Made by a program: the position numbers and the translations under genes
Part shown: positions 18,112 to 18,997 of the stretch, in pieces
Layout: every line of letters starts with the position of its first letter
How positions within the stretch are numbered: the first letter of the stretch is position 1
From: Escherichia phage EcM-vB1
Sequence record: PV574017.1
Length of the DNA stretch: 64,000 nucleotides
Reading direction: 5' to 3' (one strand)
Notes under the pieces: generated by a model
Seen by the model: the letters and a program-made list of their open reading frames with translations, nothing else
Told to the model about the DNA's origin: nothing
Database searches by the model: none

Positions 18112-18441
18112 ATGTTAGATTTGAGTAAAGTGGCCCCGCCCACTGAAGAGATTACAAAATCCAAGGTGATGCAACAGTTTTATCATCGTGATATGCTTGG
18201 TCGCTTTATCAAGAATCGTGATGTTGTTGCTTGGTCTATTGGTAATCAGGGATATCTGTTGAAGGTTCTTCAGGTTACAGGTTCAACTGCTAAGCGAGTT
18301 AAGGTGTATGACCCTGAAATGGGGCGTTCTAAGTCAGTAGACCCACAGAACTGCATCGTAATTACCCAGCAGGTAATGGATAATATTGCACGTAACGTTG
18401 CTAACTCAGTTGAACTTGATGGAGAAAACCCAAATGCATAA
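18112..18441 (+). CDS. hypothetical protein
   Basis: track ORF. Confidence 0.5.
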   Translation: MLDLSKVAPPTEEITKSKVMQQFYHRDMLGRFIKNRDVVAWSIGNQGYLLKVLQVTGSTAKRVKVYDPEMGRSKSVDPQNCIVITQQVMDNIARNVANSVELDGENPNA

Positions 18442-18997
18442 GAATGTCTTTGATTTACCTGAGATTGGTCGTGACAGTTATAGCATGTTAGACCGGTCCG
18501 ACCTATCAATCTCTCGCCTTGAAACGATGCAAGGTATGATTAGTGGAAACAGCCTAGAACACATCCTGAGCTGCTTACAAGCTAACATGGAACTCTTGCA
18601 TATCAAAGCTAAAAACTACCACTGGAACGTCTCTGGTGCAGGATTTCAGGGTGTTCATGGTATGTTTGACGAGCTGGAAGATTACGCACGACAGGTAGGA
18701 GATCGTATTGCTGAACGTATGCGTTACCACTGTGTTAAAGTGGACGCTACAGCAGCTAACTACCTCTCTCATGCTTGGTTCTCAGAGGGTAATGCTGATC
18801 TAGACATGGACGGTATGCTCTCTGATATGTGCATGACCTTGATGTGTATTATTGAGAAGATGGATGAGTTTGATGGCGATTTAGCCACCTACCCTGTCGA
18901 TCAGAGTATGCTTCAAGAAATTAATGAAGGTCTTGGCAAGTATTGCTACTTCGTCAAGAGCAACATGTCCCATTCAAGTGGTGACGTGTCTTACTAA
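18434..18997 (+). CDS. Dps-like ferritin-fold protein
   Basis: NYHWNVSG...VHGMFDE...DRIAER pattern; internal ATG with GGAG 9 nt upstream. Confidence 0.55.
   Translation: MHKNVFDLPEIGRDSYSMLDRSDLSISRLETMQGMISGNSLEHILSCLQANMELLHIKAKNYHWNVSGAGFQGVHGMFDELEDYARQVGDRIAERMRYHCVKVDATAANYLSHAWFSEGNADLDMDGMLSDMCMTLMCIIEKMDEFDGDLATYPVDQSMLQEINEGLGKYCYFVKSNMSHSSGDVSY

Follow-up and report, generated by a model that had tools for sequence, protein, structure and literature searches.

A Dps-family mini-ferritin encoded with a conserved partner, gp68, in a middle operon of a phiEco32-like Escherichia phage

The window (the whole 64,000-nucleotide stretch of Escherichia phage EcM-vB1 analyzed here, PV574017.1) encodes a protein that we assign, with hardly any room for doubt, to the Dps family as a genuine mini-ferritin. 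Its gene is the downstream one of two cistrons in a conserved unit that consists of the promoter P68, gp68, the Dps gene and a hairpin, and this unit lies within a nucleotide-metabolism module (Table 1). The functional account that we favor, and consider reasonably probable, is that the protein would act as a ferroxidase clearing Fe2+ and H2O2 while phage DNA is being synthesised. The protein has 100% amino-acid identity to phiEco32 gp67 (phi32_67, YP_001671812.1) and is called gp67 below. A Dps-type gene at this locus was already known at the annotation level; the RefSeq entry of phiEco32 gp67 reads "DNA binding protein, member of the Dps family", and the gene has been annotated since the 2008 phiEco32 genome record, so that it carries little weight as a discovery. 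The present analysis adds the operon anatomy, the conserved partnership with gp68, the lack of a DNA-binding tail, and the recognition of wrong "integrase" labels.

Table 1 Features of the gp68-Dps unit (positions in the window).
Feature	Position	Strand	Remarks
Middle promoter P68 element AAATGTATA	18064..18072	+	match to consensus tAATGTAtA
gp68 homolog, first cistron	18112..18441	+	109 aa; phrog_10984; without Pfam family
Dps-family mini-ferritin gene	18434..18997	+	187 aa plus stop; identical to phiEco32 gp67
Acidic N-terminal extension	18434..18565	+	44 aa; net charge -3; specific to Kuravirus-like clades
Ferroxidase-ligand segment (H63, W64, H75, D79, D90, E94)	18620..18715	+	alignment to E. 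coli Dps
Hairpin, closes the gp68-Dps unit	19004..19032	+	11-bp stem; dG -15.5 kcal/mol; z=-2.9

The product of the gene has a mass of 21.2 kDa and a pI of 4.7. The open reading frame starts with ATG, with GGAG 9-13 nt upstream as the ribosome-binding site. The open reading frame listing also offers a longer alternative beginning with TTG at 18386; we preferred the ATG at 18434 because the MHNN N-terminus is conserved in homologs and all GenBank annotations agree on it. The 8-kb region surrounding the gene shows 100% identity with Escherichia phage EcP-vB and 93-97% identity with many Kuravirus genomes, and the window phage is a phiEco32-like Kuravirus. The neighbors of the Dps gene are the same in phiEco32 and in the phages carrying its Kuravirus and Suseptimavirus orthologs (e.g. 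SU10 CDS67) as in the window. Furthermore, phiEco32 shares with the window the P68 promoter region and the hairpin 3' of Dps, with no difference in the Dps gene itself; the window differs from phiEco32 in having extra small open reading frames 3' of Dps, including a second copy of phrog_9296.

Dps proteins, which make up COG0783, are four-helix-bundle mini-ferritins, normally assembled as hollow 12-mers. The preliminary description had read three motifs of the open reading frame, NYHWNVSG (H63, W64), VHGMFDE (H75, D79) and DRIAER (D90, E94), as the ferroxidase-site architecture of the Dps/ferritin family, and had proposed a profile search as a check. All three motifs are present in the open reading frame, far beyond what chance would give, and the search placed the Pfam ferritin profile PF00210 above its gathering cutoff (31.1 bits against 24.5 bits, E=2.6e-7), with only residues 55-108 matched. 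This match comprises helices A and B, and the C-terminal half of the protein is divergent. PF00210 matches are also on record for all 25 of the 25 close homologs for which precomputed results were consulted, and PHROG 3636 matches the protein over its full length (E=2.6e-55). A phmmer comparison with all PDB sequences listed about 50 Dps entries, among them M. smegmatis MsDps2, B. subtilis MrgA, B. anthracis Dlp-2 and B. brevis Dps, which had E values of ~3e-9 to 6e-8 and were aligned over approximately residues 51-176. Profile, PHROG family, PDB sequence and fold matches, and the ligand alignment described below all agree, and the assignment made in the preliminary description was thus borne out.

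The fold was examined with an AlphaFold2 model built with 17 homologs, which reached a mean pLDDT of 81, with the core mostly between 84 and 97. The predicted helices span residues 41-65, 71-98, 107-112 (BC), 125-150 and 154-176, so that the modeled protein is a four-helix bundle with the short BC helix, characteristic of Dps, in the long B-C loop. In a Foldseek comparison against the PDB, the top 50 matches were all Dps or Dps-like (target-normalised TM 0.72-0.92, rmsd down to 1.1 A). We considered whether the Dps match might be a chance resemblance of motifs, or a decayed and non-functional remnant, as could be argued from the Pfam profile matching the N-terminal half of gp67 only. However, the predicted fold matches Dps over the full length, the catalytic residues do not vary between clades even where identity falls to 30-40%, the protein has been detected in two phages, and the gene has been kept in ~130 genomes; a chance or decayed match can be excluded.

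Residues H63, W64, H75, D79, D90 and E94 align exactly on H51, W52, H63, D67, D78 and E82 of E. coli Dps, using a reference sequence that was checked to be identical to PDB 1F30. Across the 172 homologs recovered in an exhaustive HMMER search, conservation is 100% at H63, H75 and D90 and 98% at E94, and in the 31 closest homologs all six positions of the segment (five ligands and the Trp) are invariant, down to ~38% identity. The inter-subunit ferroxidase site is intact at the sequence level; in such a site of Dps proteins, two His and an Asp/Glu come from one subunit, and an Asp and a Glu from the two-fold partner. We also looked at an acidic cluster in the C-D loop as a candidate iron-entry pore and dropped it: the loop is acidic in the query, and the alignment is poorly conserved there.

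The phage protein is clearly distinct from the Dps of the host. E. coli Dps (1DPS / 1F30) belongs to the same family and has the same ligand spacing, whereas its Lys-rich N-terminal DNA-binding tail is absent from gp67. The NCBIfam equivalog model of E. coli-type Dps (NF006975) scored 34.5 bits, over residues 52-96 only, far under its cutoff of 114 bits, and gp67 is therefore not an ortholog of host Dps. With BLASTP, only 41 residues could be aligned to E. coli Dps, at 39% identity; this short alignment, together with the NCBIfam score, argues against a recent capture of the gene from the host. Closer parallels are found among bacterial Dps proteins without DNA-binding tails, namely B. anthracis Dlp-2 (1JIG), S. 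aureus Dps (2D5K), B. brevis Dps (1N1Q) and Listeria Dps, which share with gp67 the four-helix bundle plus BC helix, the His/His/Asp plus Asp/Glu site and the conserved Trp. The TM-scores of gp67 to these proteins are 0.85-0.91 and the rmsd values 1.1-2.2 A, at identities of only 22-27%. Unlike them, gp67 carries a 44-aa acidic extension with clade-specific motifs, is placed under a phage-sigma promoter, and has gp68 as partner.

We then determined how widely the gene occurs. A tblastn search (E<=1e-3) found Dps matches in 167 of 50,697 phage records, ~0.3%, and ~130 of the 167 are prolate-headed C3 podophages. The identity is 82-100% in Escherichia and Shigella phages of Kuravirus and Suseptimavirus, 39-45% in Salmonella 7-11-like, Proteus Privateer-like and Cronobacter phages, and 31-35% in Aeromonas Lahexavirus-like phages; the matches outside C3 podophages are mostly in Streptomyces phages, at ~28-30% identity. 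The nearest homologs outside Kuravirus are all metagenomic sequences. Few phages overall thus carry the gene, but in the prolate C3 podophage lineage it is universal, so that the statement in the preliminary description that such proteins are uncommon in phages holds overall and fails for this lineage (PMC4281155). The SU10 report had described CDS67 as having a DPS domain and as one of the few genes common to all five C3 phages then sequenced (PMC4281155), and the Privateer paper likewise presented Dps as a C3-wide gene and detected its product by mass spectrometry (PMC7881722); the core-gene status of Dps in C3 podophages was thus noted in 2014 and again in 2021.

Other phage Dps proteins are known from Lactobacillus phages (LP65, Semele), from 'Gratiaviridae' and other gut phages, from Streptomyces phages and from Bacillus phage G. 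Like gp67, they are virus-encoded proteins with a Dps fold, with a proposed role in tolerance of oxidative or iron stress (PMC8008677); unlike gp67 they form separate lineages, at 30% identity or less, in different genomic contexts. For the gut phages, Benler et al. discussed the Dps genes and proposed protection from oxidative damage without experiments (PMC8008677). We looked in the searchable literature for biochemical or genetic data on any phage Dps and found none.

The unit begins at P68, which is one of six gp36-dependent promoters located by experiment in phiEco32 (PMC8948821) and which is the DNA of the gp79-gp36-RNAP open complex in a cryo-EM structure (PMC12276001). The host RNAP core reads this promoter when it carries the phage sigma factor gp36, with gp79 as the activator (PMC8948821, PMC12276001), and the sigma70 and sigmaS holoenzymes are inhibited by gp79 (PMC12276001). 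In the window, the P68 element AAATGTATA stands 40 nt 5' of the gp68 ATG, within a gp68-upstream intergenic region that is identical to that of phiEco32 and nearly identical in ECBP2 and WFI101126. A sigma70-like promoter match at 18029-18056 was set aside in favor of the experimentally mapped gp36-type P68. Since P68 is gp36/gp79-dependent, Dps is expressed in the middle phase, alongside the genes for replication and dNTP synthesis; SU10 CDS67 has been listed as a middle gene product (PMC4281155).

The stop codon of gp68 and the start of Dps overlap by 8 nt (ATGCATAA), a sequence arrangement that suggests translational coupling of the two cistrons. A gp68 homolog stands directly 5' of Dps in Privateer and in Aeromonas LAh_8 (BLASTP E=5e-16 and 2e-18, respectively) and in two metagenomic clades, and the two genes are adjacent in GAP52 and BUCT695 as well, as judged by coordinates. 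The only exception is Salmonella 7-11, in which gp68 is displaced by 1.3 kb and Dps directly follows ThyX. Among C3 podophages, the counts of gp68 and Dps per host genus are equal, save for Escherichia (91 versus 92), and the two genes co-occur in essentially all prolate C3 podophages. The gp68 product of SU10 was found by mass spectrometry (PMC4281155). Searches of gp68 against Pfam, NCBIfam and PADLOC gave no match, and the PADLOC defence models gave none for gp67 either. The AlphaFold2 model of gp68, based on a shallow alignment, had a pLDDT of 47 and indicated no more than a beta-rich core flanked by helices.

The surroundings of the pair are conserved in turn. The gene order dCTP deaminase, gp68, Dps, thioredoxin, ThyX is kept in Kuravirus, Privateervirus, Lahexavirus and metagenomic relatives, and NrdD is added to it in relatives. 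In the metagenomic relatives whose Dps is 53% identical, a TAATGTATATA element is kept 5' of the gp68 homolog, and this homolog (109-115 aa) overlaps the start of Dps, which is followed by thioredoxin, ThyX and NrdD. At the other end of the unit, the hairpin lies directly 3' of the Dps stop and has a weak T-run (AACTTATTTAT). In ECBP2 the stem is unchanged and the loop different, while in one distant relative the same place, 3' of Dps, is taken by another hairpin, whose T-run is clear. From its sequence and position, the hairpin is a probable terminator or 3' stabiliser. The terminator annotated in the record of phage WFI101126 is located elsewhere, outside the Dps locus.

On the favored account, gp67 would assemble as a hollow 12-mer cage that would oxidise Fe2+, preferably with H2O2, and store Fe3+ within its shell. 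Both Fenton reagents would be removed while the phage genome replicates, leading to less hydroxyl-radical damage. A preference for H2O2 in Fe2+ oxidation is a general property of Dps proteins. Flavin-dependent ThyX produces H2O2 in a side reaction, as an NAD(P)H oxidase, and we speculate that this reaction may be a source of peroxide beside the replicating DNA in phages carrying this Dps. Transcription of host dps depends on sigma70/OxyR and on sigmaS. Shut-off of sigma70 and sigmaS transcription by gp79 would leave host dps, katG and ahpCF no longer inducible, and we propose that the phage may need its own Dps copy because these host stress responses are silenced. H2O2 has been named as the preferred oxidant of Dps (PMC12502760), and in lytic infection by another phage, host dps and catalase were among the most strongly induced genes (PMC7354516). 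The proposal of a replacement for a silenced host response is weakened by Salmonella phage 7-11, which keeps Dps even though it lacks gp79 and leaves host transcription running (PMC8948821). Furthermore, plain detoxification leaves the conserved N-terminal extension and the partner gp68 unexplained.

The same intact ferroxidase site also supports a reading in which gp67 stores and donates iron for enzymes of dNTP synthesis, either host class Ia RNR or, in relatives, the NrdG Fe-S activase. The Dps gene sits inside the nucleotide-metabolism module, and in Privateer, LAh_8 and metagenomic relatives it adjoins or lies near anaerobic ribonucleotide reductase genes, as this reading would suggest. 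However, Kuravirus has no RNR gene near the Dps locus, and with a lytic cycle of tens of minutes there is little time to store iron and release it. A Dps cage holds at most ~500 Fe, and we counted this capacity against iron donation. Considering also that donation and detoxification overlap mechanistically and cannot be separated by sequence, we regard an iron-donor function as unlikely.

Protection of DNA by direct binding, which the preliminary description had left room for, was assessed from the two tails of the protein. The tails of DNA-binding Dps proteins are basic, as exemplified by K5, K8 and K10 of E. coli Dps. In gp67, residues 1-44 contain 4 K/R against 7 D/E (net -3), and residues 176-187 contain zero K/R, with a net charge of -1; a Lys/Arg-rich N- or C-terminal tail, the mark of E. 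coli-type DNA binding, was found at neither end. Because both tails are acidic, the "DNA-binding" label of gp67 finds no support in the sequence, and the same charges, together with the pI, leave direct protection of DNA unsupported. To our knowledge, tail-less or acidic Dps proteins (Listeria Dps, B. anthracis Dlp-1/2) do not bind DNA, and Dlp-2 ranks among the best structural matches of gp67. We therefore judge it improbable that gp67 binds or condenses DNA, whether by coating phage DNA or by compacting the host nucleoid in the manner of stationary-phase E. coli Dps. The annotation as 'DNA binding protein' in phiEco32 and many relatives, repeated in the name of PHROG 3636, would speak for such a role, but this label is inherited from the family name. 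Two further points in its favor are the location of the gene among replication genes and MsDps2, the closest solved homolog of gp67, which forms nucleoids (PMC2779847). Flexible terminal tails are described as needed for DNA binding in the Dps proteins studied (PMC13319912). The lack of a basic tail in gp67 suggests that protection would probably be chemical, by sequestration of iron and peroxide, rather than by coating of DNA.

The N-terminal extension carries two motifs, MHNNxFDLP and S-x-x-R-L-E/D-x-M, in which R28 is invariant and M32 nearly so. The AlphaFold2 model places one extra helix here, at residues 21-37, with low confidence. The extension is absent or much shorter in the homologs of Privateer, 7-11 and Aeromonas phages. 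When all open reading frames of the window of at least 50 aa were scanned by regular expression, neither motif had a relevant occurrence outside the Dps gene.

These features, together with proteomic data, raise the question of whether gp67 is associated with the virion, in or on the prolate capsid, where it would protect encapsidated DNA or act at entry. Privateer Dps was detected by mass spectrometry in CsCl-purified virions (PMC7881722), and Dps (CDS67) was detected in an SU10 preparation with 6 peptides and 35.8% coverage (PMC4281155), from which it is clear that the protein is made during infection. Dps occurs throughout the C3 prolate podophages and seldom outside them, its conserved N-terminal extension might function in targeting, as a signal peptide to the capsid, and uncultured-phage proteins that BFVD lists under the name 'prohead protease' (A0A6J7XDU5, A0A6J7WPK9, A0A6J7WIS1) contain a Dps-fold domain. 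On the other hand, the SU10 preparation was not clean, also containing DNA polymerase, sigma factor, terminase, scaffold and PhoH (PMC4281155), and a 9-nm iron-loaded cage could co-sediment with phage particles. The SU10 cryo-EM study names gp20-24 as the sole ejection proteins and mentions Dps in neither its text nor its supplements. The gene lies in the P68 middle operon, outside the late structural cluster; a virion structural or ejection protein would be expected to be encoded in that cluster and to be a stoichiometric component, and gp67 fits neither description. Privateer Dps lacks the long N-terminal extension, and no other open reading frame of the window has either motif, so that no shared targeting peptide was found. 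Considering both sides, we hold a virion-associated or head-internal gp67 to be distinctly improbable. The detection of Privateer Dps in CsCl-purified virions speaks against a plain detoxifier, and the SU10 detection carries less weight. We also scanned the long Dps-containing proteins (P0128, P0143 and others) with Pfam and PHROG for protease or scaffold fusions; none was recognised, and the scans returned the ferritin domain and one unknown PHROG only.

A more specific form of virion association would join gp68 and Dps, through the acidic N-terminal extension, into a two-component module carried in the virion, with gp67 as a ferritin-like cargo of the HK97-fold capsid. Encapsulin shells share the HK97 fold, and their ferritin-like cargo is directed by a terminal peptide. 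This module is suggested by the mass spectrometric detection in Privateer and SU10, the strict pairing of gp68 with an adjacent Dps gene throughout the lineage, and the Dps-fold domains in uncultured-phage 'prohead protease' proteins, and we attach very little credence to it. Such encapsulin cargo is an iron-mineralising protein of the ferritin superfamily that is associated with the shell (PMC11202242). Unlike such cargo, gp67 is predicted to be a cage itself, and its gene is away from the capsid gene and belongs to another temporal class. If such a module did exist, it would parallel the encapsulins in protecting a densely packed genome, or would act at entry, and would be moderately interesting.

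For the favored function in removal of iron and peroxide, the phiEco32 system is a tractable setting in which to study a phage Dps: P68 is structurally characterised, and the host genetics of dps and oxyR are well defined. The gene offers an entry point to the question of whether lytic phages need control of iron and peroxide after shutting off host stress responses. Finally, the "integrase" label that many GenBank records give to the Dps gene is wrong; where this spurious label occurs in records of therapeutic phages, a strictly lytic phage can be misflagged as temperate in safety screens.

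The 109-aa protein gp68 is a partner of the mini-ferritin Dps, encoded 5′ of it and probably translationally coupled to it, and is kept in Kuravirus, Privateervirus, Lahexavirus, GAP52-like phages and metagenomic relatives. Among C3 podophages, the prolate-headed lineage that includes Kuravirus, host-genus counts for gp68 and Dps were equal, with Escherichia as the sole exception (91 vs 92). Searches with gp68 returned no match in Pfam, NCBIfam or PADLOC, and its AF2 prediction had a pLDDT of 47.

In Privateer, LAh_8 and metagenomic relatives, the gp68-Dps pair adjoins, or sits within a few kb of, genes for NrdD/NrdG, the anaerobic ribonucleotide reductase, which are glycyl-radical and Fe-S enzymes; in Kuravirus, by contrast, the part of the genome around the pair is without them. 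The proximity in these non-Kuravirus relatives hints, from gene order, that phage Dps may be tied to oxygen- or iron-sensitive dNTP synthesis.

The motif TAATGTATA was found as an exact match at five positions in the 64,000-nt window (listed below with the other features); when one mismatch or fewer was allowed, 14 matches were observed against 18 expected, which is not above chance, and therefore placement relative to genes counts, rather than the motif alone.

Positions of motif matches and of genes around the gp68-Dps operon
Feature	Position	Strand	Remark
TAATGTATA	22230-22238	+	exact match
TAATGTATA	28662-28670	-	exact match
TAATGTATA	28854-28862	+	exact match
TAATGTATA	39087-39095	-	exact match
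TAATGTATA	55655-55663	-	exact match
phrog_4939 ORF	17425-17664	+	79 aa, tandem paralog
phrog_4939 ORF	17621-17830	+	69 aa, tandem paralog
phrog_4939 ORF	17830-18039	+	69 aa, tandem paralog
gp68	18112-18441	+	109 aa, phrog_10984
phrog_9296 small hydrophobic protein	19058-19237	+	59 aa, tandem paralog
phrog_9296 small hydrophobic protein	19247-19432	+	61 aa, tandem paralog
phrog_19504 ORF	19445-19621	+	58 aa, 5′ of thioredoxin gene

Many Kuravirus and Suseptimavirus GenBank genome records among those matched label the Dps ortholog "integrase" (for example, ES17, MN508615; vB_EcoP_DE5, MW741821; CHD5UKE1, MZ234028; YW01; KM01; EK5; IME267). Since a ferritin-like domain is the only domain in the protein so labelled, the name is a mis-annotation passed between records, and it could cause strictly lytic therapy-candidate phages of these genera to be wrongly flagged as temperate.

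A Dps-fold domain also lies within longer proteins in the BFVD database: uncultured Caudovirales proteins of 333-763 aa named "Prohead protease" (A0A6J7XDU5, A0A6J7WPK9, A0A6J7WIS1), and several "Dps"-named proteins of 290-679 aa. If the "Prohead protease" names are right, these would be Dps fusions to capsid-assembly proteins, implying head-internal Dps in some phages. In the long Dps-containing proteins from our own search, ferritin was the only domain recognised by Pfam and PHROG scans, apart from one uncharacterised PHROG.

Small paralogous ORFs flank the operon. The three phrog_4939 copies lie directly 5′ of P68, the middle promoter element preceding gp68, where small-ORF copy number varies among related phages: four such ORFs separate gp68 from the dCTP deaminase gene in WFI101126, and three in phiEco32. 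Both phrog_9296 paralogs, whose products probably span the membrane, lie just 3′ of the Dps hairpin; ECBP2, WFI101126 and EcP-vB carry two copies each, whereas phiEco32 has one annotated (gp66).
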